From an uncultured Bacilli bacterium (GTDB lineage: Bacteria; Bacillota_I; Bacilli_A; RF39; UBA660), in the NCBI GenBank assembly GCA_947624135.1, contig CANQIV010000003.1:1-44422 (forward strand): 44,422 bases of DNA, in the 5' to 3' direction. Both the position numbers and the translations under genes were made by a program. Positions 1 through 44,422 of the stretch are shown piece after piece; the first letter of the stretch is position 1, and every line of letters begins with the position of its first letter. Under the pieces are notes generated by a model, which was not told the origin of the DNA, did no database searches, and saw only the letters and a list, made by a program, of their open reading frames with translations.

Positions 1-2205
1 GCATTCACCCTAATAGAACTTTTAGCTGTAATAGTAATATTAGCTATAATAGCAGTCATAGCTACCCCAATAATTTTAGGAGTAATAAATGATTCAAAAT
101 ATAAAGCATTTAAATTAAGTCTAAATAATATAGAACACGCATATGAATTATATGCAACACAAAATAATATCGAACCAGGAACAGAAATAGATATAAGTAA
201 ACTACCTCTTGATGCAAAGAATTTAAAAGGAAAAGTATTTTTAAATGAAGAAGGAAAAATAGAACTAAAAGAAGTAACCGATGGAACATATAGTGCGGAA
301 GGAACACTAGATGATTTAAGTATGCTTAAAGGGACAGTAGAAGATTTACTAGCTAATAGATTAGAAATAAACGTAAATGTAATTACTAATGCAAGGAGTC
401 TAGTAGTAACAGTAGAAACAATAGATGGAGTACCAACAAGCTATAGTTATCAAATATTAGAACCCGAAGAATATAAAAAAGAAATAAATAACATAAAAGA
501 AAATACATATACATTTGATAAATTAAAAATAGATACAGAATATAAAATAAAAGTAATAGTAAAAAACAAAGTAGGATTAACAAAAGAGATAACAAAGACA
601 GTAAGAACCGAAAAAATAGATGATATAAAATTAGAATTAAATCCAAAAGATGAATATATAAAAGAAGGAACAGTAACAATAACATATCCAAAACTTGATA
701 ATGTTACATATAAATATAGTTGGGATAGTGGAGAATTTGTAGAAGCAGATGTAAGTATAGATGGAGATAAAGCAACAACAACAATACCAGCAAAAAATGG
801 AACACTTAAAGCAATAATAGTAGATGGAGAAGAAACTTTATTAACAAACTTATTAATAATAAATAATATAGATACTACAGGGCCAACTTTTTCAACAGAA
901 CTAAGTGAAAAAAATGTAACAATAATAGCGACAGATGATAAAAGTGGATTACATGAAACTCCATATAGTTGTGATGGAACATGGCAAAAATCAAATATAT
1001 GTAAGTTCACAACAATAGGAAATCATATAGTAAATGTAAGAGATGCTGTAGGGAATGTTGGAACACAACAAGCAATAAGTATTTCAGAGACACCAGTATT
1101 AGGAAATTTAAAACCAGTAGTGTATAAAGATAATAACTGGGTAGTAGCTGATACCTCTAAAGAGTGGTATAATTATTCAAATCAAGAATGGGCTAACGCA
1201 GTATTATTAAGAACAGGAGTAAGTAAAACAACAGGACAAACAGTAACAGTAACAGGAACTAATCCAGAAGCAATAGCTATGTTTGTATGGATACCAAGAT
1301 ATGAATATAAAATAACAAATTCGGGTTCAAGAGTAATAGATATAAATTTTATATCAAAAAGTACAACATATAAAGATACAAATAGTAATGGATATAGAGT
1401 ACATCCAGCCTTTACATTTGGAACAGAAGAATTATCAGGAATATGGGTAGGAAAATTTGAACCAAGTCATACAACATTATCTGCATCTAGAAATATTAAT
1501 AATTTAGGATGTAGTGATAATAATTGTGAAAGTGCAGATGGACTTAGAATACTACCAAATGTAGAAACTTTAAGATATAATAATGTATCAAATACATTTT
1601 ATGCAATCCAATCAATGGATAATAGATTAAAATTATCTGGAGATTTACACCAAATGAAAAATGGTGAATGGGGAGCAGTAGCATATTTAGCACAAAGTAA
1701 ATATGGAATAAATAAGGAAATTGAAATAAATGATAGTAGTACATATTTAACAGGTGATGGAGATTACATAACAAATGTAAATCAATCAACAACAGGAAAT
1801 ATAACAGGAATATATGATATGAGTGGAGGAGCATGGGAAAGAGTAATGGCTTATTACGAATCAGCATATAACACAACACCAGATTTAAAATTACCATGGG
1901 GTTCAACATCAACAACAAATTATGCAGGTTTTACATCTCAAATTCCTTCAAAATATTACGATAGTTACACAAGTACAACATCAGCGGAAGCATGTGGTGG
2001 AAAAGTATGTTATGGACATTCACTTTCAGAAACAGCAGGATGGTATGGAGATTATAGTTACTTTGTTTCTTCTGCGCTACCTTGGGTCTTTCGTGGAGGT
2101 CACCTTGGCGGCGGTGCTCGTGCAGGGGTGTTCGCGAATGGCAACTACTACGGCGGTCCGGAGAGCTACAATTCGTTCCGCGCTGTGTTGGTACAGACTA
2201 CATAA
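1..2205 (+). CDS. Type IV prepilin-like surface protein, copy 1 (5' end outside window): pilin N-terminus, FN3/Ig-like domains, C-terminal FGE-like C-type-lectin (CLec) domain; probable DGR target
   Basis: Frame 1 is open from base 1 (AFTLIELLAVIVILAIIAVIATPIILGVI..., class III signal A|FTLIE) and runs into the 322..2205 ORF. The C-terminus has GIYDMSGGAWE and WVFRGG...AGVF...SFRAVL motifs. Confidence 0.85.
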   Translation, partial: AFTLIELLAVIVILAIIAVIATPIILGVINDSKYKAFKLSLNNIEHAYELYATQNNIEPGTEIDISKLPLDAKNLKGKVFLNEEGKIELKEVTDGTYSAEGTLDDLSMLKGTVEDLLANRLEINVNVITNARSLVVTVETIDGVPTSYSYQILEPEEYKKEINNIKENTYTFDKLKIDTEYKIKVIVKNKVGLTKEITKTVRTEKIDDIKLELNPKDEYIKEGTVTITYPKLDNVTYKYSWDSGEFVEADVSIDGDKATTTIPAKNGTLKAIIVDGEETLLTNLLIINNIDTTGPTFSTELSEKNVTIIATDDKSGLHETPYSCDGTWQKSNICKFTTIGNHIVNVRDAVGNVGTQQAISISETPVLGNLKPVVYKDNNWVVADTSKEWYNYSNQEWANAVLLRTGVSKTTGQTVTVTGTNPEAIAMFVWIPRYEYKITNSGSRVIDINFISKSTTYKDTNSNGYRVHPAFTFGTEELSGIWVGKFEPSHTTLSASRNINNLGCSDNNCESADGLRILPNVETLRYNNVSNTFYAIQSMDNRLKLSGDLHQMKNGEWGAVAYLAQSKYGINKEIEINDSSTYLTGDGDYITNVNQSTTGNITGIYDMSGGAWERVMAYYESAYNTTPDLKLPWGSTSTTNYAGFTSQIPSKYYDSYTSTTSAEACGGKVCYGHSLSETAGWYGDYSYFVSSALPWVFRGGHLGGGARAGVFANGNYYGGPESYNSFRAVLVQTT
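2071..2190 (+). other. Putative DGR variable region (VR)
   Basis: Hand count: 73/120 G+C (61%) and 15/120 A, inside an A-rich gene. Many NNC/NNT codons lie between fixed RGG, AGVF and SFR residues at the 3' end of a CLec-like domain. Confidence 0.7.
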
Positions 2206-2226
2206 GCTTGCTTATGTAGTTTTTTT
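2197..2226 (+). terminator. Hairpin ACTACATAAG-CTTG-CTTATGTAGT plus T-run overlapping the stop codon; intrinsic terminator, possibly also a DGR target hairpin
   Basis: Perfect 10-bp stem 2197-2206/2211-2220 followed by T6. Confidence 0.75.
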
Positions 2227-2251
2227 ACTAAAATATGATTTTTTGTTCGAT

Positions 2252-2280
2252 TTGACAAATACATATAATCGTGCTAGAAT
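2252..2280 (+). promoter_or_regulatory. SigA-type promoter
   Basis: TTGACA-17bp-TAGAAT with extended -10 TG; GAAGGGGG RBS before ATG 2312. Confidence 0.7.
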
Positions 2281-2311
2281 ATGTGTTAAATTTTTGAAGG
2301 GGGAAATTTAT

Positions 2312-4543
2312 ATGAAAGAAATTTTAGAAAAATTAGATCAAGTTATGCAACAATTTTATGATAAAAAGAAAGAAAATGATATATTATTTAATGCTAACAA
2401 AATGGAGGAATCAGTTTTAAAAGAAAGAAAATTATTTTTAAGTCAAAAAAGATCAAATGAAAGAAAAGCGATAAAAAAACAATTAGAGACTATAAAAAAT
2501 AAAAAAATGAGTTTAATATCAGAACAGGTTCCATCAATGGATAATTTTGAAAAGTCTTGTATTACTAGAGGATATAAAAGAGTTTTACTTGATAAAAAAG
2601 AGGAAGAATTAATTTCCAAAATAAATGATATAAATGAAAAAGAACAAGAATTTGAAACATTAAAAACAGAATTAAAAAAGATACAAAATGATAAAAATAG
2701 TATTATGAAACCATTTATGTTGGGTATAACTGAATACGATAGTATGTTAAGTGATTCATTTAACGAAGAATACCTAAATGTTGAAAATAAAATTATTTCT
2801 AAAATAAATTCATTAAAAGAACAATTAGTAGAAAAAGAACAATTAGAACAAGAATTAGAAAATTTAAGATTAAATAAAGATAGTAAAATATCTGAAACAT
2901 CTATAATAGATACATTATATGGACAATTAGATTATGATCAAAACTTAAATTTTAAAGTTAAAGGAATAAAAAATAGAAAATATGGATCACAAAAAAATAA
3001 ATTAGAAGAAAAAACAACAAATGAAGAAATAAGTAAATCATTTATATTAGATAGTATTACAAGATTATATGATAAATTAGAAGAAAAATATGAAAAAAGA
3101 ATAAAAATGCTTCTTAAAAAGACAGATGAAGAAAAACAAATAGAAAAGAAATGTAAAGAAATAGAAAAAAGACCAAATTATGATAAAGTTTATTCAAGGG
3201 AAATGTTCGAATTAAAATATGAATTACAAAAAGTTATCACACCTGAAAAAACAAGAGTAGAAATTTTATTAAAAACAAAAGGAAAAGAAAGACAAAATAT
3301 AATTTCTGAAACTGAAAAAATTAAATTTGAAAAAGTAGAAAAATTAAATGAAATAGAAAAAGAAATTGACTTATTAGCTGAAGAATTTAAATCACTTAAA
3401 AATCAATTAGATGATAATATATGTGTAGTTAATGAAGAATTTAGAACAGCTTTATTAAATAAACTTAACTTTACTAAAGAACAAAGATTAAATATAAAAA
3501 ATGAAATAAGTCAAATTACAGTTGATACAAAAGATTTAGATTTTGAAATATCAAATTTAGAAAATGCTTTAAATATAATTAATAATTATTTGAAGCTCCT
3601 TGAAATTAATGATAATGAAAAGAATGCATATTTCACACAACTTAATGAAATAGAACAAATGGAATATGATAGAAGAGTATTAGAAAAAAGTAAAAAAGTT
3701 GCTGAACAAAAAGAAATAGAAAGATTAACTATGGAACAACAAAGACTTGAAGAACAACAAAAAGAACTTATGTTAAAAATGCAAAAAGAACAAGAAGAAC
3801 GTGAAAGAAAACTTAAAGAGCAACAAGATTTAGAATCATTCTTAAATAATATAAAGAAACAAAGAAAAGAATCTGAAAAGAAATCTAAATATATAGATGA
3901 AATTATGGGAGAGATAGATATAACTAGTGCTGAAAATACAAAAACAAAATTTGAACCATCAAAAGTAGTTATTGAAAAACCAATTCAAATAATTGAGGAA
4001 CCAATTAAAACAGTTGAAGAACCAGTTCGTGTAGTAGAAGAACCAATAGAAGAAATTGAGGAACAACAATTAGAAATATCTGAAGACTCATTAAACCCAG
4101 TATATAATATCGAGCCAACATCAACGATTGATGAAGAACCATCTATCGAAGATAAAGGAGAAGTAATTTCAACTATAGATAATGAAGACTTATCACTAGC
4201 TGATGAACAAAGTAAAGATTTTGAAAATGAATTAAAAGAAATATTTGATATTTCAGAAGAAATAGAACAAATATTTAAAACAAAGAATTATGAATCTGAA
4301 TCAACTATTAAACAAGAAGATTATGTACCAAATGTTATAGAAGATGATGTAATTTTATACGTTAAAAAGAATAAAAAAAATAACAGAACTAATTTAATAA
4401 AAGAAGATTCTAAAAAAAATAAATCTATAAAGGAATTAATTGCTGATTTTGAGGAACCACTTGATTTAGATGAAATTGATTTTAGTTTTGAAGATTATGA
4501 AATAGAAACAAAATCAAAGCAAAAATGTAAAAAGATTAATTAA
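2312..4543 (+). CDS. Hypothetical coiled-coil protein with acidic C-terminal tail (paralog of 4643..6034)
   Basis: Start moved from 1922 to ATG 2312 because of the RBS and promoter. E/K-rich heptads and EEP repeats. Confidence 0.8.
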   Translation: MKEILEKLDQVMQQFYDKKKENDILFNANKMEESVLKERKLFLSQKRSNERKAIKKQLETIKNKKMSLISEQVPSMDNFEKSCITRGYKRVLLDKKEEELISKINDINEKEQEFETLKTELKKIQNDKNSIMKPFMLGITEYDSMLSDSFNEEYLNVENKIISKINSLKEQLVEKEQLEQELENLRLNKDSKISETSIIDTLYGQLDYDQNLNFKVKGIKNRKYGSQKNKLEEKTTNEEISKSFILDSITRLYDKLEEKYEKRIKMLLKKTDEEKQIEKKCKEIEKRPNYDKVYSREMFELKYELQKVITPEKTRVEILLKTKGKERQNIISETEKIKFEKVEKLNEIEKEIDLLAEEFKSLKNQLDDNICVVNEEFRTALLNKLNFTKEQRLNIKNEISQITVDTKDLDFEISNLENALNIINNYLKLLEINDNEKNAYFTQLNEIEQMEYDRRVLEKSKKVAEQKEIERLTMEQQRLEEQQKELMLKMQKEQEERERKLKEQQDLESFLNNIKKQRKESEKKSKYIDEIMGEIDITSAENTKTKFEPSKVVIEKPIQIIEEPIKTVEEPVRVVEEPIEEIEEQQLEISEDSLNPVYNIEPTSTIDEEPSIEDKGEVISTIDNEDLSLADEQSKDFENELKEIFDISEEIEQIFKTKNYESESTIKQEDYVPNVIEDDVILYVKKNKKNNRTNLIKEDSKKNKSIKELIADFEEPLDLDEIDFSFEDYEIETKSKQKCKKIN

Positions 4544-4557
4544 ATTAATCTTTTTTT
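4529..4557 (+). terminator. Intrinsic terminator
   Basis: AAAAAGATTAAT-TAA-ATTAATCTTTTT plus T-run at the stop codon. Confidence 0.6.
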
Positions 4558-4558
4558 G

Positions 4559-4587
4559 TTGCAAATTCTTGTTAAACATGTTATTAT
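4559..4587 (+). promoter_or_regulatory. SigA-type promoter
   Basis: TTGCAA-17bp-TATTAT with extended TG. Confidence 0.5.
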
Positions 4588-4642
4588 TATAGTAGAGTGT
4601 AGGCGCACTAAAGTAAGTTTTGTATGTATGGGAGGTAATATA

Positions 4643-6034
4643 ATGGAAAATGTAATGGAAAATACATATGAAGTGATAGAAAAAATAATGAATCTCTATT
4701 ATGAAAAAGATAAGGAAAATAAAGAACTTTTCAATAAAAAAGAAAATGATACTATAAGATTAAATAAAGAACTTTCTGAATTTCAAGATAAAAAAATGAA
4801 AAGAATTGATTTTTTAACAAGAAAATTACAAGATTTGGACAAAGAAAAAGAAAGTGCAATAAATAAATATTTTCAATCTGAATTAGAAGCAGGGCAACAA
4901 CAAAGTGTAAATGCAAATGTAAATCAAGATGTAAAAGAACAACAATATCAACAACAAATTGCTCAAATTGATTCAAAATTAAATGAAATTAGTTCTAAAG
5001 AAGAAAAAAGAAATGAATTAATGAAAAAAATAGCAGATTATAAAGCACATAAAAATGATAGATATCAGATTTATTTAAGTTCATGTTCAGTAAATAGACA
5101 AATAAGTCAAGTTGAATTAGAAGCCTTAAAAACAAAATTCATGGCTAAAGATAAAAAAGAATTAATGGACATGCTTGAAAATTTATATAGTTTAACTGAA
5201 GAACTAATGGAAAAAAATGCACTTGAGTCACAATTAAATGCTATAAAATTAGAAAGAAAAAAAGAATTTGGAGAAAATGTTCCTACAGGTTTTGAACTAC
5301 ACAAAGCTGAATATCATGAACAAAAAATAAGAGCAATGTTTGATAAAGAATATGATAACCAAAAGAAATTAATTATGAATGAGTTAGCAGAACTTGAAAA
5401 TGAATCAGATTTTGAAAAGAAATTAAAAGAAGAATTAAATTCTGTAGCTACTATGCCAAATTATAATAATGTTTATTTAAAAGAAATGTTTGATTTTAAA
5501 TATGAAGCAAGAAAAATTTTGGGAAAAGCAAAAACTAAAATAGAGTGTGAATTAGCAGAAAAAAATATGGAAAAGTCAGATATTCTTGATGGAGTATCAT
5601 CAGAGTTAAAGAATAAATATCTAAAAAGAGATGATATTGCAAATGAATTTGTAAATTTACCAAACCAATTAGATGATAATAAAAATCCAATCAATGAAGA
5701 AGAAAGAAATAAATTAAAAAATCAATTAAGTCAAATTCAATTAGAAATTGCAGAAATAGAGAAGATACATGGAGAGGCTGTTTTAGAAGCTAATAAAGTA
5801 TCAAAAGTTATAGATAATTTAAATAAACTTATGGAAATAATAAATAAGAGTTTAAATGCTATTCAACCAAATAGTGGAGAAATAGCTGCATTTACAACAA
5901 TGTTGACTACAGAAGAAGAACAAGAATATAATAGAAGAAAAGATATAAATAAGAAATTTGACATTAGTGAAGACCAATTCTTACTAGATGGAGATAACGT
6001 AACCTTTACTGGAGGCGGAACTGTTAAATTCTAG
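4643..6034 (+). CDS. Hypothetical coiled-coil protein (paralog of 2312..4543)
   Basis: GGAGGT RBS before ATG 4643. Shares PNY..VY..EMF..KYE and NQLDDN...NEE.R motifs with the upstream gene. Confidence 0.8.
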   Translation: MENVMENTYEVIEKIMNLYYEKDKENKELFNKKENDTIRLNKELSEFQDKKMKRIDFLTRKLQDLDKEKESAINKYFQSELEAGQQQSVNANVNQDVKEQQYQQQIAQIDSKLNEISSKEEKRNELMKKIADYKAHKNDRYQIYLSSCSVNRQISQVELEALKTKFMAKDKKELMDMLENLYSLTEELMEKNALESQLNAIKLERKKEFGENVPTGFELHKAEYHEQKIRAMFDKEYDNQKKLIMNELAELENESDFEKKLKEELNSVATMPNYNNVYLKEMFDFKYEARKILGKAKTKIECELAEKNMEKSDILDGVSSELKNKYLKRDDIANEFVNLPNQLDDNKNPINEEERNKLKNQLSQIQLEIAEIEKIHGEAVLEANKVSKVIDNLNKLMEIINKSLNAIQPNSGEIAAFTTMLTTEEEQEYNRRKDINKKFDISEDQFLLDGDNVTFTGGGTVKF

Positions 6035-6051
6035 GGGAATATAATTTAAAT

Positions 6052-6078
6052 TACTGGTAAAAATGCCAGTAGTTTTTT
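6052..6078 (+). terminator. Intrinsic terminator
   Basis: TACTGGTA-AAAA-TGCCAGTA followed by a T-run. Confidence 0.6.
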
Positions 6079-6158
6079 AAATCTTATTTGTAATAAAAAA
6101 TTAGATAATACTACTTGAAAAGATGTAAAAATAGTGATAAAATTAATATGGTGATGAT

Positions 6159-6533
6159 ATGTATAATCGTGGTTTTACATTAGTCGAACTTACTGCAATA
6201 ATAGTTATTTTGGCGATTATATTTTTAATATCTTTTCCTAACTTGTTAAATATATCAAAAAATGATGAGAAAAAATTATATGAATCAATGAAAAATGACT
6301 TATGCAAAGCAGGTGAAACATATATATATTCCAATCTAAATGATTTTGATATACTTGAAGAAGGAAAAAAGATACAAATACCTATAGAAGATTTAATAAA
6401 AAATAATTTAGTCGATAAAAACAAAAAGAATCCAAAAACTAAAAATAATGTAGGCCAAGATGAATTAATATATACTGTACTTACAGATGGAACATTAGAA
6501 TGCGAATATGTTGAATTTAAGAAGGAAGGGTAA
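6159..6533 (+). CDS. Small type IV pilin / ComGC-like prepilin
   Basis: MYNRG|FTLVELTAIIVILAIIFLISFP class III signal peptide; 124 aa; two Cys. Confidence 0.8.
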   Translation: MYNRGFTLVELTAIIVILAIIFLISFPNLLNISKNDEKKLYESMKNDLCKAGETYIYSNLNDFDILEEGKKIQIPIEDLIKNNLVDKNKKNPKTKNNVGQDELIYTVLTDGTLECEYVEFKKEG

Positions 6534-6535
6534 TT

Positions 6536-6769: not shown

Positions 6770-6789
6770 ATAAAAACAGGAGGTATAAT

Positions 6790-8268
6790 ATGGAAGGTGC
6801 TAAAGAAAGAGTAAATCAAATTATAGAATCTTTAAATAATAATCAATATGATTCTGATGAAATAAGAAATATGACAAGAGAATTAATTCAAATACGTGAA
6901 GAATTAATTAATGAAAAAGATTTGCTAAAATATGAAAGATTAAATGCCTTATTAGATTTAAGAGAAAAAGAAGCAAAAGGTGAAGTAGTAGATTACAGCA
7001 ATATTGAAAAAATAGAAACTACAATGAAAGATATAGATTCAATTTTAGATGTTATAAGCGAAAATTTAAAATTAATTGATTCTAAAAAAGATATTATTTT
7101 TTCAAAACCAAAGGATACACAAAATGATAATTTTTCACATGAAGAACCAATAGTTGAACCTGTAGTAGAAGAACCAGTAGAAACTAGACAATTTATAGAA
7201 GAATCACAAATTCCAACGGAAAATAATGAATTAACACTTGAAAATTCTTTAGAATCAGAAAATATTGATTTAAAAGATGCTATAGAACCACCAGTAATAG
7301 AAGAAACTGAAGAAACTATAGGAGAGCCAGTTCTTGATACAAATGTAGTAGAAGAACCAGTAATAGATGAGGTTCAAGTACCAGAAGAACCAATAAGTGA
7401 TGAAATTGAACAACCAGTAATCGATGAGATTCAAGATATAAATGTCGATAAATTTCCAACTTTAACTGACGATGAAATTGAATTTTTAGATAGAAAAGAT
7501 GTAATTATTCCAAGCAAAAAAGATTTTGAGGTTAACATAGATTATAGTAAAAATACTTACGATGAAGACAATGAAACAACTGGAGATAAAATATACGATG
7601 TTAAAGATAATGAAAAAGATGATTTTCTAGATTTTAGTTTACCAATAGAAATAGAAGAAAATGTAGATGAAGTTGAAGATGAGGTCGTAGTAGATAATAT
7701 GGAAAATTTATGTGAACAAATTTATTATGACATTATCTCTAATATGGAAACATTAGAAACAATAAAATTAGACAAAACTGAAAGTGGTAAATTACAATTT
7801 AATAACGATATTGAAAACTATTTTGATGGAGAAATAGATACAACTATAGATTTCGCATACGGTGAATTTATTAAAATTGATGATATAGATGAAGCAATTC
7901 AAAAATATTATAATAAAGATAAAGGTAAAAAATATGTTGTAACTGAACAAAATAAAACATTTAATATATCTGCATCTAAAATAAAGAAAATAAATAAAGT
8001 ATTAAAAACTCGTAGTATAATTGAACTTGTTAAAAATAATAAATTAAGTGAAAGTGATATAAAAAGAGTTTATGGTAAAAATAGAAATTCTAAAAAAGTA
8101 TATAAACTTGGTGAGGTAGATACAAACGCTAAAGCAGGAGTATATATTCAAAAAGAAGAAATGATAGCTGTATTAGATAATGTATTAAAATCTCAAAGTA
8201 AAAAATTAGAATGGTTAAAAAATATTAAAGATAAATTTACAAAGAAAAAACAATTAACTAGACAATAA
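6790..8268 (+). CDS. Hypothetical protein with acidic Glu/Pro/Val-rich central region
   Basis: GGAGGT RBS; repeated EEPV/EEPI/EQPVID units. Confidence 0.8.
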   Translation: MEGAKERVNQIIESLNNNQYDSDEIRNMTRELIQIREELINEKDLLKYERLNALLDLREKEAKGEVVDYSNIEKIETTMKDIDSILDVISENLKLIDSKKDIIFSKPKDTQNDNFSHEEPIVEPVVEEPVETRQFIEESQIPTENNELTLENSLESENIDLKDAIEPPVIEETEETIGEPVLDTNVVEEPVIDEVQVPEEPISDEIEQPVIDEIQDINVDKFPTLTDDEIEFLDRKDVIIPSKKDFEVNIDYSKNTYDEDNETTGDKIYDVKDNEKDDFLDFSLPIEIEENVDEVEDEVVVDNMENLCEQIYYDIISNMETLETIKLDKTESGKLQFNNDIENYFDGEIDTTIDFAYGEFIKIDDIDEAIQKYYNKDKGKKYVVTEQNKTFNISASKIKKINKVLKTRSIIELVKNNKLSESDIKRVYGKNRNSKKVYKLGEVDTNAKAGVYIQKEEMIAVLDNVLKSQSKKLEWLKNIKDKFTKKKQLTRQ

Positions 8269-13516: not shown

Positions 13517-13601
13517 TTGTAAAAATTTATATTAAGTGGTATTATTAGTATAGATAGAAGAGTAAGAGATAAGCTTCTATTAGAGTGAAAGGAATGAAAA
13601 T
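13517..13601 (+). promoter_or_regulatory. Repeated pilin-family promoter/leader module (copy 2)
   Basis: TTGTAA-17-TATTAT (extended TG), ATAGAAG/CTTCTAT stem, GAAAGGA RBS. Near-identical modules at 40912, 42427 and 44331. Confidence 0.8.
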
Positions 13602-30770: not shown

Positions 30771-30771
30771 T
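30730..30771 (+). pseudogene. Second orphaned rbgA-like 5' end (MNENNVLNKSVINC)
   Basis: GGTGA RBS and ATG overlapping the RhuM stop; the frame reaches ATC AAC TG(T) in the same register as rbgA I-N-W. Confidence 0.65.
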
Positions 30772-30779
30772 TTGATTAC
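30760..30779. other. Putative serine-recombinase att junction 2
   Basis: GTAATCAA-C-TG-T-TTGATTAC: 8-bp inverted repeat centred on TG (30769-30770). Confidence 0.75.
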
Positions 30780-30970
30780 GATTTATAGAAACTCCTTTAG
30801 AAAAGCTTATAAATAAAGGAATTGAAGATAATTTGATCTTGTATGATTTTAATAAAAAATCATCAAAAATCGCAAAAAATTGACAAAAATGTTGAAAAAT
30901 AATACTTTTTTGACTAGGAATTCGACAACTGATTACGACAAGTGAAACTATAAGTAAAAGAGGTGAAATG

Positions 30971-31675
30971 ATGAAATATAAGAAGTCATATAAAATTGAA
31001 GGAAAAGTAATAGCAAAAAAAGATATAATAAATATGATTGAAAATGTTTTGGATAAATATCCAAAAGAAAAAGATATATCTATTGATATTGAAGCTAAAT
31101 TTAAAGATGGAAGTATTATCTCAGACAATAGTTGTGGGATTTTTGATCATACTTACTTTGAAAAATTACAATTGAATGAAGTATCTATACATATTAGACA
31201 AAATTATAGTAATGAAATTCATGTTTTTATTTATAATGATAGTATTTATAGTAGTGCAACAATAGAATCGGACAACAATAAATTATATAATTCTATTTGC
31301 TTTTGTATTGATGAAAATATTAATTTAATGAAAAAGCAAAACAATTTATATTTATTATCATGTAAATCATGGGGTTATTTCGTTATATCATTTTCTATAC
31401 TTCTATTAGAACTATTAATAATATTTGCAACAGAATACATATTTAAAGTTAAAATTCCATCTGTACTTATTTACCTAATGTTAATACTTATGCCTAATGT
31501 AGTTGCAACATATATTGAAAGATACATTGAAAAACATTATCCGATAAATCAATTCTTTTTCGGGGAAAATTCTGTAAATAAACCTAGTACAGAGAAAAGT
31601 TTTATCTTTAAAATAGCATCGTTTATTCTAATTAATATAGTTATTCCTTTACTTATAACTTATTTAACAAAATAG
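30971..31675 (+). CDS. Hypothetical protein with C-terminal transmembrane helices
   Basis: GAGGTGA RBS (start 30968 or 30971); soluble N-terminal domain and 3 hydrophobic segments. Confidence 0.7.
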   Translation: MKYKKSYKIEGKVIAKKDIINMIENVLDKYPKEKDISIDIEAKFKDGSIISDNSCGIFDHTYFEKLQLNEVSIHIRQNYSNEIHVFIYNDSIYSSATIESDNNKLYNSICFCIDENINLMKKQNNLYLLSCKSWGYFVISFSILLLELLIIFATEYIFKVKIPSVLIYLMLILMPNVVATYIERYIEKHYPINQFFFGENSVNKPSTEKSFIFKIASFILINIVIPLLITYLTK

Positions 31676-31755
31676 ATATAATTAGTTTTCTGCTTTTTAT
31701 AATTAGTAGGAGAAATCCTACTTTTTTGATATAATATTTGAAGGAGTTGAGAGCT

Positions 31756-32976
31756 ATGTCAAAATATAAAGTAGGTGCTTATGTAAGACTATCAAAAGAT
31801 GATAATTATAATGAATCTGATAGTATTGATAATCAAAAAAGCATAATTAAAGATTATATAAAAGAAAATAGTGATTTTGAATTAGTAGATTATTATGTAG
31901 ATAACGGTCATACTGGAACTAATTTTGATAGACCAGCTTTTGTTAAAATGTGTTTTGATATAGTTAAGAAAAAAATTAATTGTGTAATAGTTAAAGATAT
32001 GTCTAGATTTGGAAGAGATACTGGATGGGTTAAAGTATATTTGGGTGAAGAATTTCCAAAACACAGTGTTAGATTTATTTCTATTAATGATAAATTAGAT
32101 AGTCTTAAAGATAGTAATTATACAGATACTTTAGAATTTGCCTTACTAAATTTAACACATGAACATTATGCAGTTGATATTTCTGAAAAAGTCTCTGCAG
32201 TTAAACATCTTCAACAGAAAAAAGGCGACTTTATTGGCGTTTCTGCTCCTTACGGCTACTTAAAAGATCCAAATGATTGTCATAAGTTTATTGTTGATGA
32301 TTATGCTACAAGTATTATTAAAAGAATTTTTAATATGACATTAGAATGTAAAAGTAAAAATGAAATAGCTGATATCCTAAACAAGGAGGGTATACTAACT
32401 CCATCGAGGTACAAAAGTGAGGTAACTAAAGTAACTAGCAATAAAACAATTAAATCCAAAAAGTGGAACAATACTATAATTAATGAAATATTAAAAAACG
32501 AAACATATATAGGAACACTTATTCAAGGTAAAAATCGTAAACCAATGAGAAAATTTAAAAAAGTAATTAAAACAAATCCGGAAGAATGGAAAATATGCGA
32601 GAACCATCATGAACCAATAATTGATAAAGAAACATTTCAAACAGTTCAAAATATATTAAACTTTTCTGATATAGTACAAGAGGAAAATGAATTATTAATA
32701 ACTAAAATTAGATGTGGTGAATGTCATAGCGAATTCTATAGAAGAAAAGCAAAAGGAATATATTATTATTGGTGCAAATCTTCATATCGTAAAATAGGTT
32801 GTAATTTAAAATCAATAAGGAAAGATATTTTAGAAAAAATGTTACTTGTTGATCTTAATGATAAATATAAAAAGGATTATAAAAAACTTAATAAGAATTT
32901 GGTAAATAAATATATAAAACAAATAGAAATATTTGATAAAAATAGAGTCAAAGTAGTATATAAATCTGATAAATAG
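31756..32976 (+). CDS. Large serine recombinase (resolvase, recombinase and zinc-ribbon domains)
   Basis: AYVRLS catalytic Ser, DNGHTGTNFDRP, VKDMSRFGR, APYGY, HEPII, CGEC...YWC...C; AAGGAG RBS before ATG 31756. Confidence 0.93.
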   Translation: MSKYKVGAYVRLSKDDNYNESDSIDNQKSIIKDYIKENSDFELVDYYVDNGHTGTNFDRPAFVKMCFDIVKKKINCVIVKDMSRFGRDTGWVKVYLGEEFPKHSVRFISINDKLDSLKDSNYTDTLEFALLNLTHEHYAVDISEKVSAVKHLQQKKGDFIGVSAPYGYLKDPNDCHKFIVDDYATSIIKRIFNMTLECKSKNEIADILNKEGILTPSRYKSEVTKVTSNKTIKSKKWNNTIINEILKNETYIGTLIQGKNRKPMRKFKKVIKTNPEEWKICENHHEPIIDKETFQTVQNILNFSDIVQEENELLITKIRCGECHSEFYRRKAKGIYYYWCKSSYRKIGCNLKSIRKDILEKMLLVDLNDKYKKDYKKLNKNLVNKYIKQIEIFDKNRVKVVYKSDK

Positions 32977-33043
32977 TGATATAATTAAGTTATAAAGTTT
33001 CCAAAAAATAAGTATTAACCATAAAGAAAAAGAAGGTGAATAT

Positions 33044-33886
33044 ATGTCTAACAAAATAATAGAAGTCCAAGATGTCAGAATAAATGTAACCAATATAAAT
33101 GAAAAAGATTATATTTGTATTTCAGATATAGCAAAAGCAAAAAGTAGTAATTCAAGAGCTGCAGATGTTATAAGGAATTGGTTGCGAAATAGAAGCACAT
33201 TAGATTTTTTAACTACTTGGGAACAAATTTATAATCCTAATTTTAAAGTGTTCGAATCTGAACACTTTAGAAAACAGGTTGGTTTATTGACATTTACACC
33301 TAGTGTTACAGAGTGGTGTGAAAGAACAAATGCTATTGGAATATATTCTAAAATGGGTAAATGTGGTGGGACATATGCACATAAAGATATTGCATTTGAA
33401 TTTGCATCTGCAATAAGTCCTGTATTTAAATTATATTTAATAAAAGAATTTGAAAGATTAAAAGAACTAGAAAATCAAAATAGAGAATGGAATGTAAAAA
33501 GAATACTTACAAAGAATAATTATCTAATCCATACTGATGCTATTAAAAAATACATATTACCTGATAATGATTTTTATAAAAATAAAGAATGGTTAAAATA
33601 TGCAGAAGAAGCTGATATTATTAATGTAATATTATTTCATACTACTGCTAAAAAATGGAGAGAATTAAATCCAGAGTTAGCTAAAAATTCAAATGTAAGA
33701 GATTATGCATCAATAAATGAATTAACAGTTTTGTCTAATTTAGAATCACATAATGCTGAACTAATTAAAGAAGGAAAAGCAAAAGAAGAAAGATTTGAAA
33801 TATTAAGTGATATATGTAAATATCAATTAGATATTCTAAATAATGCAGAAAAAATTAAATTATTAAATGAAAAAGGTAGTGATTAA
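33044..33886 (+). CDS. KilA-N domain-containing protein
   Basis: DYICISDIAK, IRNWLRNRSTLDFL, GGTYAHKDIAFEFAS. Confidence 0.88.
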   Translation: MSNKIIEVQDVRINVTNINEKDYICISDIAKAKSSNSRAADVIRNWLRNRSTLDFLTTWEQIYNPNFKVFESEHFRKQVGLLTFTPSVTEWCERTNAIGIYSKMGKCGGTYAHKDIAFEFASAISPVFKLYLIKEFERLKELENQNREWNVKRILTKNNYLIHTDAIKKYILPDNDFYKNKEWLKYAEEADIINVILFHTTAKKWRELNPELAKNSNVRDYASINELTVLSNLESHNAELIKEGKAKEERFEILSDICKYQLDILNNAEKIKLLNEKGSD

Positions 33887-37778: not shown

Positions 37779-37779
37779 T

Positions 37780-38436: not shown

Positions 38437-38439
38437 TAT

Positions 38440-39324: not shown

Positions 39325-39432
39325 ATTAATATCATAAAATTATTGTTATTTAATGTCAAGAAATATTTAAAAATTAAGCAAATATTGTGTAAAATTTGTT
39401 ATAATTGTTATATAATTAAATAGAGGTGAAAT

Positions 39433-40875
39433 ATGAAAAAACTAAATGAGTTAATAGATACAAAAATAGATGTAGAAATAAAAGGTATTAAGACTAATTC
39501 TAAAGAAATAGAAAAAAATGATTTATTTATATGTACTGATAGAGGTACTTTAGATAGACATCAGTTTATAGACGATGCGATAGAAAAAGGTGCGAGTGCT
39601 GTTATAGTTAAAAAAGATGTAGGCAAGAAAAAAGTACCAATAATTAAAGTAGAAAATCCAAATGATATATTACCTATAATTTGTTCTAAATTTTATGATG
39701 AGCCAGAAAAAAAACTTACTATGATTGGTGTTACAGGAACAGATGGAAAAACAAGTGTATCAACTATGATTCAAACATTGCTTGGTAGTGATGTTTGTGG
39801 ATATATAGGTACTAATGGATATAGTTGTTCAAAATTTAATAAAGATACAAATAATACAACACCAGATTCAGATAAATTGTATGGGTATTTCGATGAGTTT
39901 ATTAAAAATGGTTGTAAATATTGTTCAATGGAAGTATGTAGTGAAGCACTTATGCTTGGAAGGGTAGAAAATATAGAGTATGATATTTCAATACATACAA
40001 ATATAACTAGCGAACACCTAAATTCACATGGTTCACTTGAAAATTACGTAAAAGATAAATGTAAATTATTTAAACAAACTAAAAAAAATGGTTATTGTAT
40101 ATTAAATAAAGATGATGAACATTTTAATGAGGTAAAAGAAGCATCAAATGGTATAGTTTTAACATATGGAAAAGATAGTGATAATGATTTATATTTTAAA
40201 GATATAAAAATATTACCTGGAAAAACATTATTTAAAATAAATTATAAAAATAAAGAATATGAAATAGATAGTCCTATGGCAGGAATGTTTAATGTATATA
40301 ATTTATCAGCAGCTTTACTTACACTTTTTACTTTAGGATTTACCTTTGATGACATAAAATCAAAAATATCTAAATTACATGTAAGTGGAAGACTTGAAAT
40401 GATAGATATGGGACAAAATTTTTATGCAATGGTTGATTATGCTCATACTCCAAATGGAATAACAAAATTACTTGAATATGTAAAAGAACTTCCTATAAGA
40501 AAAAGTATAGTCGTAATAGGTCAAGCAGGAGATAGAGATAAATCTAAAAGAAAAACAGTTGGAGAGGTTGTTGTAAAAAATTGTGATCATGCTATATTTA
40601 CATACGAAGATCCAAGAAGCGAGGATCCAAAAGATATAATCGAAATGATTATTGAAAATATAAAGGATACACATGATAATTATGAAATAGTAATAGATAG
40701 GAGTAAAGCAATAAAAAAAGCTATAGATATTGCAAAAGAAAAGGATATAGTTTTAGTTTTAGGTAAAGGTAATGAGACGTATCAAAAACTAAAAGATAAA
40801 GTTATATATTTTAATGATATAGAAGAGGTTAAAAAATCTATACAAGAAAGATTAAATAGAGTTAATACTAAATGA
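39433..40875 (+). CDS. murE: UDP-N-acetylmuramoyl-dipeptide amino-acid ligase MurE
   Basis: GVTGTDGKTS, TTPD, EHL..H, GRLE, VDYAHTP, LGKG.E. Confidence 0.92.
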   Translation: MKKLNELIDTKIDVEIKGIKTNSKEIEKNDLFICTDRGTLDRHQFIDDAIEKGASAVIVKKDVGKKKVPIIKVENPNDILPIICSKFYDEPEKKLTMIGVTGTDGKTSVSTMIQTLLGSDVCGYIGTNGYSCSKFNKDTNNTTPDSDKLYGYFDEFIKNGCKYCSMEVCSEALMLGRVENIEYDISIHTNITSEHLNSHGSLENYVKDKCKLFKQTKKNGYCILNKDDEHFNEVKEASNGIVLTYGKDSDNDLYFKDIKILPGKTLFKINYKNKEYEIDSPMAGMFNVYNLSAALLTLFTLGFTFDDIKSKISKLHVSGRLEMIDMGQNFYAMVDYAHTPNGITKLLEYVKELPIRKSIVVIGQAGDRDKSKRKTVGEVVVKNCDHAIFTYEDPRSEDPKDIIEMIIENIKDTHDNYEIVIDRSKAIKKAIDIAKEKDIVLVLGKGNETYQKLKDKVIYFNDIEEVKKSIQERLNRVNTK

Positions 40876-40898
40876 AGCAAGTAGATTGCTTTTTTTTT
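40876..40898 (+). terminator. murE terminator
   Basis: AAGCAA-GTAGA-TTGCTT plus T-run. Confidence 0.6.
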
Positions 40899-40911
40899 GA
40901 CAAAATTATAC

Positions 40912-40995
40912 TTGTAAAAATTTATATTAAGTGATATTATTAGTATAGATAGAAGAGTAATAAAAAGCTTCTATTAGAGTGAAAGGAAGGAAAAT
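40912..40995 (+). promoter_or_regulatory. Repeated pilin-family promoter/leader module (copy 3)
   Basis: TTGTAA-17-TATTAT, ATAGAAG/CTTCTAT stem, GAAAGGA. Confidence 0.8.
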
Positions 40996-42374
40996 ATGAA
41001 AGAGAAAAAACAAATAAATATGAGTAGGGGGGGGTACTTTACACTAGAAAAGTAAAGGCATTCACCCTAATAGAACTTTTAGCTGTAATAGTAATATTAG
41101 CTATAATAGCAGTCATAGCTACTCCAATAATACTAGGAGTAATAAATGATTCAAAGTATAAAGCATTTAAAATAAGTTTAAACAATATAGAACACGCATA
41201 CGAATTATATGCAACTCAACATAATATTGAACCTGGAACAGAAATAGATATAAGTAAATTACCTCTAGATTCTAAAAATCTAAAAGGTAAAGTATTCTTA
41301 AATACAGATGGAAAAGTAGAATTAAAAGAAGTAACCGATGGAACATATAGTGCGGAAGGGACACTAGATGATTTAAGCATGCTTAAAGGAACAGTAGAAG
41401 ATTTACTAGCGAATAGATTAGATGTAGATATGAAATTAACATCAACACAAAATAGTATATCAATAGAAATAGAAACAAAAGAAGGAGTACCAACAAATTA
41501 TAGTTATGAAATAACAGGACCAAATGACTATAGTAATAAAGTAAATAATATAACAGAAAATACACATACATTTGATAAATTACAATCTGATACAGAATAT
41601 AGTATAAAGGCAACAGTAAATAATAAAGCGGGATTGATAAAAGAGTTAACAAAAGCAATAAAAACAGAACAATTAAAAGGCCCAACTATAGAAATGGCAT
41701 CAGATAGTGATACATATATAGCTGCAATATATTTGGACCCAACAAATATAGAAAGATATTGTGATTCTAGTAATATTAGCAGTACGGCAGGTGTTACAGA
41801 AGGATGTATGAAATGGTATGCATATAAAGAAACAGATGATACATACACAATGTTACTTGACCATAATATAACAAAATTTGATGATGATAATATAATAAAA
41901 TGGACTACAAAAGATACAAATGAATTAGGACCAGAAGAAGCATTAAGAGTATTAAAAGAAACGACAGATTCATGGATAGCTATACCTGAAAGAAATGATA
42001 GTTATACTCCAACATTAGGTGACAATATTTCTTCTTCTAAATATACAATAAATTATACCGGATATAGATCAAGACTTATTGAAGCGGAAGAGGTAGCTAA
42101 AATTATTTCTGCTGATTTATCTTCATTAACAATAGAGCAAGTTGTTAGTTTTCAAATCGACAATATAAAATATCAATGGCTTATAGGAAGTGGAGATGGG
42201 ATTGGATTTAGATATTGGACATCTTCACCTGTAAAAACTAGAAAAGCTATTTATATTGCTGGCCATTTAAATGAAGCAGCAATTGATGCATCATCGTTTA
42301 GTAGTAGCAGTAGTTCAAAAAACATTGGAATAAGACCAGTAATAACAATTCCAAAATCAATGATTAATAATTAA
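40996..42374 (+). CDS. Type IV prepilin-like surface protein, copy 3, frameshifted at a G8 tract (predicted phase-OFF); different C-terminal domain (YWTSSP...GIRPVI)
   Basis: ATG 40996 reads MKEKKQINMSRGGYFTLEK*. Adding one G joins the leader to AFTLIELL... and the 41379..42374 ORF, giving 459 aa. Confidence 0.8.
41027..41034 (+). repeat. Poly-G tract G8 (out of frame)
   Basis: AGTA-G8-TACTTTAC. Confidence 0.9.
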
Positions 42375-42388
42375 TTATATAAACTATA

Positions 42389-42416
42389 GAAAGTAGACAA
42401 ATCTACTTTTTCTTTT
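42389..42416 (+). terminator. Intrinsic terminator
   Basis: AAAAGTAGA-CAAA-TCTACTTTT. Confidence 0.65.
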
Positions 42417-42426
42417 ACAGTTATAC

Positions 42427-42511
42427 TTGTAAAAATTTATATTAAGTGATATTATTAGTATAGATAGAAGAGTAAAAATAAAACTTCTATTAGAGTGAAA
42501 GGAATGGAATT
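42427..42511 (+). promoter_or_regulatory. Repeated pilin-family promoter/leader module (copy 4)
   Basis: TTGTAA-17-TATTAT, ATAGAAG/CTTCTAT stem, GAAAGGA. Confidence 0.8.
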
Positions 42512-44284
42512 ATGAAAGAGAAAAAACAAACAAATATGAGTAGGGGGGGGGTACTTTACACAAGTAAAGTAAAGGCATTCACCCTAATAGAACTTTTAGC
42601 TGTAATAGTAATATTAGCTATAATAGCGGTAATAGCTACTCCAATAATACTAGGAGTAATAAACGATTCAAAATATAAAGCATTTAAAATAAGCTTAAAC
42701 AATGTAGAACATGCATATGAACTTTATTCAGTACAGAAAAATATTAAACCAGGTACAGAGATAAATATTGAAGATTTACCTCTAGATTCAAAGAATCTAA
42801 AAGGAAAAGTATTCTTAAATGGAGATGGAAAAATAGAACTAAAAGAGGTAACCGATGGAACATATAGTGCGGAAGGAACACTAGATGATTTAAGTGTGCT
42901 TAAAGGAACAGTAGAAGATTTATTAGAAAATAGATTAGATGTTAAGGTAAACGTAAATACTAATGCAAGGAGTCTAGTAGTAACAGTAGAAACAATAGAA
43001 GGAGTACCAACAAGTTATAGTTATCAAATATTAGAGCCAGAAGAGTATAAAAAAGAAGCAAATAATTTAAAAGAAAACACATATACCTTTGATAAATTAA
43101 AAACAGATACAGAATATAGTATAAAAGTAATAGTAAAAAATAAAGCAGGATTAACAAAAGAGATAACAAAGACAGTAAGAATCGAAAAAATAGATGATAT
43201 AAAATTAGAATTAAATCCAAAAGATGAATATATAAAAGAAGGAACAGTAACAATCACATATCCAAAACTTGATAATGTTAGATATAAATATAGGTGGGAT
43301 AGTGAAGATTTTGTTGAAGCAGATATAAGTATAGATGGAGATAAAGTGACAACAACAACACCAGCAAAAAATGGAACACTTACAGCTGTATTAATGGATG
43401 GAGAAGAGACAATAATATCAAAACAAATAACAATAACTAATATAGATAATATGGCTCCGGTAATAGAAAAAATAGAAGGAAATGATAATGTACAATCAAA
43501 TAGAAAAATAATAAAAATAACAGCTAGTGATTCAGGTGTAGGAGAAATAAAATATTCATGTGATGATGGAACAACATGGCAAGATAAAAATGAATGTATA
43601 TATAATCAAAATGGAACACAAAAAATAAAAGTAAAAGATAGTTTAGAAAATATAAGTGAAAGTAATGAAATAAATATAACAACTATAGCTAGTGAAGAAA
43701 CTTTTACAATAAATAATTTATTTCCTGATGGATCTTTTGAAACAGAAAATTCAAATGATTTAGTAATAGAAGGTGACAGCGTAAAAAAAATAGAATTTGA
43801 CACATCCAATTATATATCAGGAAGCAAAAGTTTAAAACTTACACCAATCATAGTTTCAACTAATCAATGGGGAAGCGGAGTTAGTATAAAAATTACTAAC
43901 ATTAAAGAAGGACATGTATATTATGCTTCAGCATATTGCAAATCTAGCGCTAAATGTGGAATTCTTGCATATACGTCTGACTGGAATAATGGTGGAATAT
44001 ATTGGGCAGGTGAAAAAAATTCATCATCAGCATGGGTAAGGTTATCTTTGTATGCTTATTCAAAAGTTAATAAAGATTTTGTAAGCTTTAGATTAAACAT
44101 TTTACCACCTTTTGATATAAACCTTGATAACGGAAATCCATATTACTTTGATGATATAATACTTGTTGATTTAACAGAAATATTTGGGAAAGGAAACGAA
44201 CCAAATAGCAAGTGGTGCGATGAAAACATAAATTATAATACGACAACGGTAAAAAAATATAATAATAGTGTAGATATTCGTTGA
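42512..44284 (+). CDS. Type IV prepilin-like surface protein, copy 4, in frame (G9); Ig-like domains and a carbohydrate-binding (CBM4/9-like) C-terminal domain
   Basis: MKEKKQTNMSRGGVLYTSKVKA|FTLIELL; NLFPDGSFE...SGSKSLKL...YFDDIIL. Confidence 0.85.
   Translation: MKEKKQTNMSRGGVLYTSKVKAFTLIELLAVIVILAIIAVIATPIILGVINDSKYKAFKISLNNVEHAYELYSVQKNIKPGTEINIEDLPLDSKNLKGKVFLNGDGKIELKEVTDGTYSAEGTLDDLSVLKGTVEDLLENRLDVKVNVNTNARSLVVTVETIEGVPTSYSYQILEPEEYKKEANNLKENTYTFDKLKTDTEYSIKVIVKNKAGLTKEITKTVRIEKIDDIKLELNPKDEYIKEGTVTITYPKLDNVRYKYRWDSEDFVEADISIDGDKVTTTTPAKNGTLTAVLMDGEETIISKQITITNIDNMAPVIEKIEGNDNVQSNRKIIKITASDSGVGEIKYSCDDGTTWQDKNECIYNQNGTQKIKVKDSLENISESNEINITTIASEETFTINNLFPDGSFETENSNDLVIEGDSVKKIEFDTSNYISGSKSLKLTPIIVSTNQWGSGVSIKITNIKEGHVYYASAYCKSSAKCGILAYTSDWNNGGIYWAGEKNSSSAWVRLSLYAYSKVNKDFVSFRLNILPPFDINLDNGNPYYFDDIILVDLTEIFGKGNEPNSKWCDENINYNTTTVKKYNNSVDIR
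42543..42551 (+). repeat. Poly-G tract G9 (in frame)
   Basis: AGTA-G9-TACTTTAC encodes R-G-G-V. Confidence 0.9.
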
Positions 44285-44293
44285 TATTAAATT

Positions 44294-44326
44294 AAAAACT
44301 TATTTTGAAAAATAAATAAGTTTTTT
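44294..44326 (+). terminator. Intrinsic terminator
   Basis: AAAAACTTATTT...AAATAAGTTTTT. Confidence 0.6.
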
Positions 44327-44330
44327 ATGC

Positions 44331-44413
44331 TTGTAAAAATTAAATATAAGTGTTATCATTAATATAGATAGAAGAGTAAGAAAAGCTTCTATTAGAGTGA
44401 AAGGAATGGAAAT
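44331..44413 (+). promoter_or_regulatory. Repeated pilin-family promoter/leader module (copy 5)
   Basis: TTGTAA-17-TATCAT, ATAGAAG/CTTCTAT stem, GAAAGGA. Confidence 0.75.
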
Positions 44414-44422
44414 ATGAAAGAG
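44414..44422 (+). CDS. Start of a fifth prepilin-like family gene (truncated by the window edge)
   Basis: ATGAAAGAG (MKE) follows the conserved leader exactly as in the other copies. Confidence 0.65.

Follow-up and report, generated by a model that had tools for sequence, protein, structure and literature searches.

A large family of modular type IV pilin genes with candidate poly-G switches, shuffled modules and a retroelement footprint in an uncultured gut Bacilli bacterium

The 44,422-nt window analyzed here is the entire contig C3 (CANQIV010000003.1) of the draft genome of an uncultured Bacilli bacterium (GCA_947624135.1, labeled G000; 1,240,267 bases in 77 contigs, G+C ~25%). It contains four copies of a modular type IV pilin gene and the beginning of a fifth. 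We consider it likely that they belong to a large family of modular pilins that are switched individually and shuffled by module, and that a subset with a CLec-fold tip bears the rewriting of a diversity-generating retroelement (DGR) whose cassette lies outside the assembly. The original prediction, made from the window alone, was of three combined layers of diversification: slippage, recombination and retro-mutagenesis. This was partly supported: the sequence argues for slippage and shuffling, and points to retro-mutagenesis as a footprint rather than a present activity.

Results

Modular pilin genes and pilus machinery

The gene copies, all on the forward strand, share an architecture of leader, pilin domain, FN3 domain, optional Ig-like modules and a tip domain. 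The body of copy 1 (1–2205), cut by the contig start at A↓FTLIE (the arrow marks the leader junction), comprises pilin, FN3, two Ig-like modules and a tip of the FGE/CLec fold. Copy 2 (13602–15420) starts with an ATG at 13602, followed by a G10 tract (13633–13642) that leaves the body (13666–15420) out of frame (OFF); it contains pilin, FN3, and an FGE-like tip lacking the variable region (VR) signature described below. Copy 3 (40996–42374, ATG at 40996) carries a G8 tract (41027–41034, OFF) and a body (41058–42374) ending in a tip with the motifs YWTSSP...GIRPVI. Copy 4 (42512–44284) is a complete 590-aa open reading frame (ORF), in which a G9 tract (42543–42551) keeps the pilin in frame (ON); its leader, MKEKKQTNMSRGGVLYTSKVKA↓FTLIE, is followed by pilin, FN3, Ig-like modules and a tip of the carbohydrate-binding module (CBM) fold. 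Of copy 5 (44331–44422), the promoter (44331–44359) and the ATG (44414) are present, and the contig end cuts it before the poly-G tract. Copies 3, 4 and 5 form a tandem array beginning at 40912, which had been predicted and is real, running into the start of the fifth gene at the contig end.

The N-terminus of copy 4, KVKA↓FTLIELLAVIVILAIIAVIATPIILGVIN, has the sequence features of a type IV pilin (G/A at −1, F at +1, E at +5 and a hydrophobic helix of ~20 residues). The Pfam matches of copy 4 to N_methyl (25.8 bits, cut-off 21.2) and fn3 (25.2, cut-off 25) both pass, and for all N-termini the best PDB sequence match was the Streptococcus sanguinis pilin PilE1 (8pfb). In copy 1, the N_methyl match is partial and the fn3 match weak, and the FGE-sulfatase matches of the tips of copies 1 and 2 are likewise weak.

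The tips were compared by modeled fold. The model of the copy 1 tip (52 homologs; predicted local distance difference test, pLDDT, 91.2; predicted template modeling score 0.93) had the DGR variable protein TaqVP (5vf4, E = 3.3e-10) as its top PDB match, followed by FGE-family enzymes, Mtd and TvpA. The model of the copy 4 tip (pLDDT 78.7) matched CBM16 (2zew, E = 9e-7, template modeling score 0.72 on the target) in Foldseek, and also CBM22 and CBM4; a Pfam search assigned this tip to no family. The predicted fold is thus a beta-jelly-roll of the CBM4/9/16/22 superfamily, and the earlier label of the tip as CBM4/9-like is essentially right. The copy 3 tip gave no Pfam match, and shows a weak likeness (E = 0.013) to the DUF6273 DGR target of sister species G017. 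The window copies therefore end in distinct tips, as predicted: FGE/CLec-like in copies 1 and 2, the GIRPVI type in copy 3, and a CBM16/22/4-like beta-sandwich in copy 4. These tips may bind host or microbial glycans.

Upstream of the tips, the predicted collinearity of the copies was confirmed. Copy 1 matches copies 2 (offset 13665) and 3 (offset 41057) with an identity of 0.58–1.0 per 60-nt bin up to ~600 nt, beyond which the ungapped identity is ~0.2–0.5 per bin. Against copy 4 (offset 42574), the ungapped identity is 0.77–0.98 to ~840 nt and then collapses. Copies 1 and 2 match again further downstream, at the motif LGNL.PVVYK.NNW (LGNLKPVVYKDNNW at 1099 and LGNLIPVVYKNNNW at 14296), with 865 of 1107 positions matching between 1099–2205 and 14296–15420.

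A tblastn search revealed family members on more than 35 contigs. The union of matches covers 83,556 nt in 61 blocks on 36 contigs, corresponding to 6.7% of the assembly, and we estimate ~45–50 paralogs per genome. The N-terminus FTLIELLAVIV is present in 31 full-length genes. Pilus assembly machinery, the absence of which would have counted against the original prediction, was located on three contigs: PilB (PF00437, 420.9 bits), PilD (PF01478, 67.9 bits) and PilC (PF00482, 100.4 bits) together on C15, a second ATPase/platform pair beside another family member on C7, and a PilT-like ATPase on C2. The family members are probably minor or tip pilins, serving to present an adhesin module on the pilus.

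A poly-G tract in the pilin leaders

Each visible 5′ end in the window is preceded by a TG-extended promoter, TTGTAA-17-TATTAT, at 13517–13545 (copy 2), 40912–40940 (copy 3), 42427–42455 (copy 4) and 44331 (copy 5). These four occurrences compare with 0 expected from 100 shuffles. The promoters had been described as identical; the cassette is indeed present at all four positions, in near-identical form. It is conserved at 90–100% over 37 copies in the genome, and the conservation sets in abruptly at the −35 box, ~125 nt before the tract, suggesting that each gene has its own promoter/leader cassette. A general promoter scan was uninformative (26 sites, compared with 25.9 in shuffles), and the promoter assignment thus rests on conservation.

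The only runs of six or more G or C in the window are the three leader tracts (G10 at 13633, G8 at 41027 and G9 at 42543), each located 31 nt past the leader ATG. With G9, the ATG reads into the pilin, and the leader ORF enters A↓FTLIE 30 nt past the tract; with G8 or G10, the leader frame meets a stop within 4–6 codons. In the pilin frame, a TAG stands directly 5′ of the tract, and alternative starts are absent. Since G9 fuses leader and pilin, the other frames stop and no alternative start exists, the layout is that expected of a clean translational on/off device. It matches the design of slipped-strand contingency loci, with a G7–G10 homopolymer in the leader ORF whose length sets the frame.

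The same arrangement recurs throughout the genome, which contains 51 G runs of at least 6 nt, 38 of them in the pilin-leader context (30 G10, 4 G9, 3 G8 and 1 G7). A search for G8+TACTTTACA gave 42 matches in the genome and 0 with the motif reversed as a control; the genus's 26 other genomes together have a single match. A tract precedes FTLIE in 34 genes: 30 are OFF, 3 are ON, and 1 more, with G7 and another leader, is in frame. None of the OFF genes is truncated: 23 have open bodies of 437–791 aa, and 7 reach contig ends. These intact bodies favor reversible switching over decay. Tract lengths differ between paralogs, and contigs break at or near the tracts, as repeats alone would also cause. 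The predicted phase switch, for which no coordinates had been given, is thus supported from the sequence by the position of the tract in the leader ORF, by G9 alone bringing this leader into frame, and by the intact OFF bodies.

Two complete genes are in frame with G9 (C3:42578 and C6:31944), and both have a CBM-like tip; a third CBM-tipped gene (C26:4369) has G10. Of the VR-bearing genes, four have a visible leader, and each of these is OFF in the consensus. Given these numbers, there is only a hint that variation accumulates in silent copies.

A poly-G tract of at least 9 nt is present in 14 of 24 sister genomes sampled. In species G005, the same design occurs with another leader, MNKNNAWGG..VTYSKG↓FTLIE, and a G10 tract that is out of frame.

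The module of poly-G and TACTTTACA was also found at the head of non-pilin genes (C15:24741 (−), C22:20814 and 18036 (−), C24:84, C29:14378 and C75:2870 (−)). These include an acyltransferase-like membrane protein with the homologous leader MKEKNQKNM.GGVLYT and a G10 tract (OFF), two copies of a membrane protein with an internal, in-frame G8, and three members of a small family starting with MNINKNL.GGGYFT and having G9 or G10. Because the same module heads these genes, the 5′ switch looks portable. TACTTTACA invariably follows the poly-G run.

Shuffling of pilin modules

To compare the histories of stem and tip, tips were classed by their last residues, and a tree was built from the first 570 nt of 28 genes, leaving aside the divergent C16_12418, C8_20001 and C8_23133. 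Tip type changes 10 times on this N-module tree (minimum 3), close to the mean of 11.2 for shuffled tips, and 36 of 200 shuffles gave values as low. The near-random distribution indicates that the tip is almost independent of the stem. Starred branches of the tree force at least 5 changes for the GIRPVI type and at least 3 for the CBM type. The groups were set before tree building and tested after the tree was seen: with the approximately unbiased test, monophyly was rejected both for the CBM-tipped genes (three genes, p = 0.0075) and for those of the GIRPVI type (six genes, p = 4e-7).

Scanned in 90-nt windows, each window copy is matched best by a paralog that changes every 30–300 nt, with an identity that is often 100%. 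The sequences thus give good support to an exchange of modules by gene conversion or homologous recombination: the module phylogenies are incongruent and the identical tracts are distributed as a patchwork, and the recombination layer of the original prediction, for which congruent phylogenies would have been damaging, is supported.

Relatives of the tips were sought in public data. The CBM-like tip has 8 relatives there. When copy 4 was searched against contigs of other genomes, with its own genome excluded, no relative was found. Another, independent assembly contains a protein that combines the copy 4 tip (one difference in the last ~220 residues) with an FN3 segment identical to that of copy 1.

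A retroelement footprint on copy 1 and other tips

The 3′ end of copy 1 carries a VR-like hypervariable block (2069–2196) that is poor in adenine, rich in GC and variable at NNC/NNT codons. Over its last 150 nt, the gene has a G+C of 0.55 and an A content of 0.15, compared with 0.33 and 0.42 in the remainder. The block is followed by a hairpin and T-run over the stop codon (2197–2227), conserved 3′ of the VRs, which is likely a terminator and may also serve as a DGR target-site hairpin.

Comparison of copy 1 with its paralog C65_1854 showed no mismatches at 1595–2068, 25 at 2069–2170, 3 at 2192–2196 and none at 2197–2227. Counting over the mismatch list, 24 of the 25 in 2069–2170 fall at codon positions 1–2. 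The 474 nt without mismatches before the VR indicate diversification after very recent homogenization. Two more VR variants, one of them in another assembly, stand on nearly the same scaffold, giving four variants altogether.

The genome contains eight VR-like segments, one of which is an orphan fragment. In the aligned VRs, most of the variation falls on the two N positions of NNC/NNT codons, and A occupies 2 of their 51 invariant columns, compared with 20 of 60 among the 100 columns upstream. Among FGE-type tips, the VR signature forms a gradient, from a G+C of 0.64 down to background. We interpret the copy 1 block as the residue of adenine-directed mutagenic homing, and conclude that the copy 1 tip is likely a DGR target by descent, which was probably diversified recently.

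The orphan (C33:11256–11107, minus strand) consists of a VR with its downstream hairpin, ~300 nt past a full-length FGE-tipped gene. It was considered as a template repeat (TR) and ruled out, being GC-rich and not AAC-rich. It may be a remnant of recombination or homing.

The window contains no DGR reverse transcriptase (RT) or TR, and copy 1 is its only pilin gene with a VR-like block. Of the predicted retro-mutagenesis, the footprint is borne out on copy 1 and on seven other tips of the genome; RT, Avd and TR were found neither in the window nor in the assembly, and copies 2–4 have no VR signature.

DGR cassettes in sister species

In sister species, complete DGR cassettes stand beside homologous pilin genes, and RT, Avd and TR components were all identified in G017, G020, G021 and G002. 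In G017, the VR and TR (99 nt) differ at 14 sites, each of them an adenine in the TR; next to this pair are an RVT_1 RT and, at the position expected of Avd, a 118-aa ORF without a Pfam match. In G020, G021 and G002, the target gene (M..(R/K)G↓FTLIELLAVIVIL) is followed by a MutS_I-domain protein, bAvd and RVT_1. The TR of G021 is composed of AAC/AAT codons and is homologous to the VRs of G000. Its use as a proxy template for the G000 VRs was dropped, since the G021 VR/TR pair is itself not clean.

The protein between the target gene and bAvd is a stand-alone MutS domain I (PF01624, 44 bits; L124:7402–7770 in G020:C9, also L126 and L127). We know of no description of such an accessory gene for DGRs.

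Poly-G runs also occur upstream of DGR-targeted pilin genes: a G10 run in G021 (L126:~140–185, C36) lies between TTGACA and TATAAT, and a G11 run in G020 (end of L124, C9) is truncated where the contig stops. Phase switching in these species may affect transcription rather than the reading frame.

Other RTs were encountered in the sister genomes, 10 of 26 of which have no RVT_1 match. A conserved 330-aa RVT_1 protein is encoded next to lexA in several of them (L017 8067–9056 in G019:C2, and L011–L013); it has no adjacent VR or TR and no counterpart in G000, and probably represents a different RT class, such as a defense or retron type. RVT_1 matches of 390–453 aa (160–163 bits) look like yet another RT class.

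Setting of the window

The window sequence was found in sequencing runs labeled rabbit gut or gut metagenome (16 DNA runs from 5 studies, 4 of them marked as its possible source, with no RNA run among those listed). Its housekeeping genes include polC, ftsK, recA, rny and murE; together with the relatives of its RecA, they assign the genome to uncultured, small-genome gut Bacilli. Copy 2 is bordered on either side by unique housekeeping genes, and copies 3 and 4 come after murE. The contig starts exactly at the codon preceding FTLIE in copy 1 and ends shortly past ATGAAAGAG in copy 5, indicating that the assembly broke on both sides inside the shared 5′ cassette.

A further small pilin-like gene (6159–6533, plus strand; 124 aa, MYNRG↓FTLVEL, N_methyl 23.2 bits) has no poly-G tract and is outside the modular family. 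It is surrounded by three long acidic coiled-coil proteins (2330–4543, 4640–6034 and 6790–8268), upstream of polC. A choloylglycine (bile-salt) hydrolase family gene (27767–28741, plus strand; CBAH, 371.6 bits) fits a gut habitat.

An island at 29703–33886 (plus strand) consists of a RhuM-family gene, a membrane protein, a large serine recombinase (Resolvase, Recombinase and Zn ribbon domains) and a KilA-N protein. A scan of the window found no tRNA, and the island has no visible connection to the pilin genes. The recombinase (31738–32976) was considered as the agent of the phase switch and rejected, since it is part of this RhuM/KilA-N island and nothing ties it to the pilin genes.

Discussion

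We propose that the genome encodes a family of modular type IV pilins, each transcribed from its own conserved promoter/leader cassette. Slippage of the poly-G tract in the presumably cleaved leader during replication would switch the 34 genes with an assembled 5′ end independently of each other, and the cell would display just those pilins that are in frame, 3–4 genes being ON in the consensus genome. RecA-dependent exchange among the ~50 paralogs would rebuild pilin/FN3 stems, Ig-like spacers and at least three kinds of tip. Where present, a DGR would rewrite the ligand-binding face of the CLec tips (the last ~100 nt, specifically at adenines). The cassette serving G000 may be unassembled, located on an unbinned element, or recently lost.

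Several observations weigh against this proposal. With respect to the pilins, the leader residue at position −1 is Ala, the usual residue being Gly; Ala should be tolerated at this position. Proteins of 440–790 aa would also have to be assembled into pili. With respect to the switch, the tract length would have to change in vivo; the uniformity of the tracts, 30 of 38 being G10, could partly come from the assembler settling homopolymers. With respect to shuffling, the identical tracts reach 474 nt, longer than short-read k-mers, and some contigs may be mis-threaded between paralogs or co-assembled strains.

With respect to the DGR, in G000 RVT_1 (PF00078) gave no matches (3 candidates scored), a six-frame regular-expression search for RT motifs gave none, and tblastn of 10 cassette proteins from sister species against the genome found no RT, Avd or DGR-specific accessory gene, the sole match under E = 0.1 being that of the MutS_I accessory protein to a gene on C18. 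There is no TR-like copy in the genome, VR-like matches all lying at gene 3′ ends save for the orphan. Thus RT, Avd and TR are all missing from the assembly of G000, which gives no sign of present DGR activity. The 3′ end of copy 2 lacks the composition contrast of copy 1, copies 3 and 4 have no G+C-rich, A-poor 3′ block, and the G021 VR/TR pair, with an extra codon and some non-A differences, is not clean. The assembly is 94.1% complete and has no contig shorter than ~2.7 kb, so absence of the cassette is not shown by these searches. With a length of ~2 kb and repeat-like TR sequence at its borders, a DGR cassette could have dropped out of the assembly.

Two readings of the footprint compete at this point. 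In one, a trans-acting DGR missing from the bin serves at least eight scattered OFF tip genes, slippage displays a few of them, and gene conversion reshuffles the family; we regard this as possible, if rather doubtful as a whole. In the other, the DGR layer would be a fossil: the VRs go back to an ancestral DGR whose cassette the species has lost, and only slippage and recombination operate now. The missing components in a nearly complete assembly, the VR gradient, which looks like decay, and the sister genomes that likewise lack RVT_1 all fit a fossil. This reading nevertheless has to accommodate four VR variants on identical or nearly identical scaffolds, including copy 1 and C65_1854, and a cassette of this size with repeat-like TR borders is just what an assembly without small contigs could drop. 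On this evidence, we consider a fossil unlikely, while taking it seriously. Doubt could also be cast on the shuffling, which might be largely an artifact of short-read contigs mis-threaded through identical repeats, or of a strain-mixed bin. Paralogs do share identical tracts of 100–474 nt, many contigs start or stop within family members, as the window itself does at both ends, and the bin has a contamination of 1.04%. On the other hand, copy 2 lies between unique genes and copies 3 and 4 follow murE on one contig, and in the N-module tree the tip types are scattered over starred branches. Whatever the threading, the reads contain a repeat node with several contexts, and the shared identical tracts in genes that are otherwise 70–90% identical are therefore real; as a feature of the sequences, they would be independent of how contigs link particular modules. 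An artifact on the scale required appears improbable.

The switch has two rivals, to both of which we give very little credence. The out-of-frame copies could be pseudogenes, or homopolymer sequencing errors, with no reversible switch, as the high proportion of OFF genes (30 of 34 scored, most with G10) might suggest. Decay or error would however have to leave open bodies in 23 of 23 OFF genes with a visible end, and place the tract, essentially the only type of long G run in this genome of 25% GC, at the same codon in 38 genes; the upstream cassette is moreover 90–100% conserved, both wrong frames are flanked by stops, and one contig has three tract lengths. Alternatively, the tract could work through a leader-peptide/terminator attenuator, as in pil1 of Streptococcus gallolyticus, rather than by fusion to the start codon. 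There is a small hairpin after the tract, but the leader RNA fold is no better than in shuffles (z = −1.4), no terminator-like site was found at 40800–44422, and the leader ORF leads directly into the pilin, for which no other start codon is available.

The proposed family of switched modular pilins has parallels in several known systems. Repeat-mediated switching is known from Neisseria, in which pilC1/pilC2 undergo poly-G phase variation, the opa genes have repeats in the leader-coding region, and many constitutively transcribed adhesin genes switch independently. As in pilC and opa, a tract in the part encoding the signal peptide sets the frame, and many surface adhesins would be switched independently. 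Unlike in Neisseria, the switched proteins are pilins themselves, the same 5′ module also heads non-pilin genes, and the family has three to four times as many members although the genome is only half as large. Mosaic paralogs arising by gene conversion underlie antigenic variation in pilE/pilS of Neisseria and in families of Mycoplasma and Borrelia. The patchwise identical tracts of the G000 family resemble these, whereas there is no single expression site with silent cassettes: each copy with an assembled 5′ end has its own promoter, start and switch.

The CLec/FGE-fold DGR variable proteins TaqVP of Thermus (5vf4), TvpA of Treponema (2y3c) and Mtd of a Bordetella phage (1yu0) have the fold of the copy 1 tip. 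The VR-like block of copy 1 resembles theirs in lying at the extreme C-terminus, in its variable NNC/NNT codons, and in a conserved, GC-rich 3′ end with a hairpin behind it. They differ in that the G000 assembly has no cognate RT or TR, and that its VRs, at least eight, are dispersed over the chromosome on genes headed by a pilin that would also vary in phase and recombine.

Modular type IV pilins were described in S. sanguinis, in which PilB combines a pilin with a vWA domain and PilC a pilin with a lectin (PMC8179133, PMC9934059). These proteins resemble ours in having a class III leader and a pilin with a grafted adhesin or lectin module, in a monoderm bacterium. S. sanguinis has one or two such pilins, compared with ~45–50 paralogs in G000, where FN3/Ig spacers, at least three predicted tip folds, a candidate per-gene switch and Ala at −1 are added features. 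In gut commensals, Bacteroides DGRs diversify tip adhesins of type V pili (bioRxiv 10.1101/2024.11.15.621889), and thus likewise act on pilus-borne adhesins; those pili are of type V and belong to Bacteroidota, and the portion of the report considered makes no mention of type IV pili or phase variation. The same portion states that most cellular Bacillota DGR variable proteins resemble phage receptor-binding proteins. A literature search revealed no report of a DGR acting on type IV pilins, although supplements of DGR surveys (e.g., Table S11, PMC11661182) may list pilin-type targets, which such surveys, in the parts considered, mention in passing. The search likewise found no description of a pilin family this large with per-gene switches.

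Taken singly, the layers are textbook: modular pilins, poly-G contingency switches, gene conversion, and DGRs acting on lectin folds. What is new is their combination, their scale and the host. The FGE-type tip is very common in public data, with matches at E ≤ 1e-5 for 7,248 of the 8,000 candidates scored; N_methyl is present in many of the matches listed. The abundance of pilins with FGE-type tips in metagenomes suggests that a general attachment principle of reduced-genome gut Bacilli may be unstudied. How hypermutation, recombination and phase variation are coordinated is a question for which the family provides a natural case study. If the proposal is correct, ~7% of a minimal gut-symbiont genome would be devoted to a three-tier generator of adhesin repertoires on type IV pilins, consisting of combinatorial joining, targeted hypermutation and stochastic one-of-many expression.

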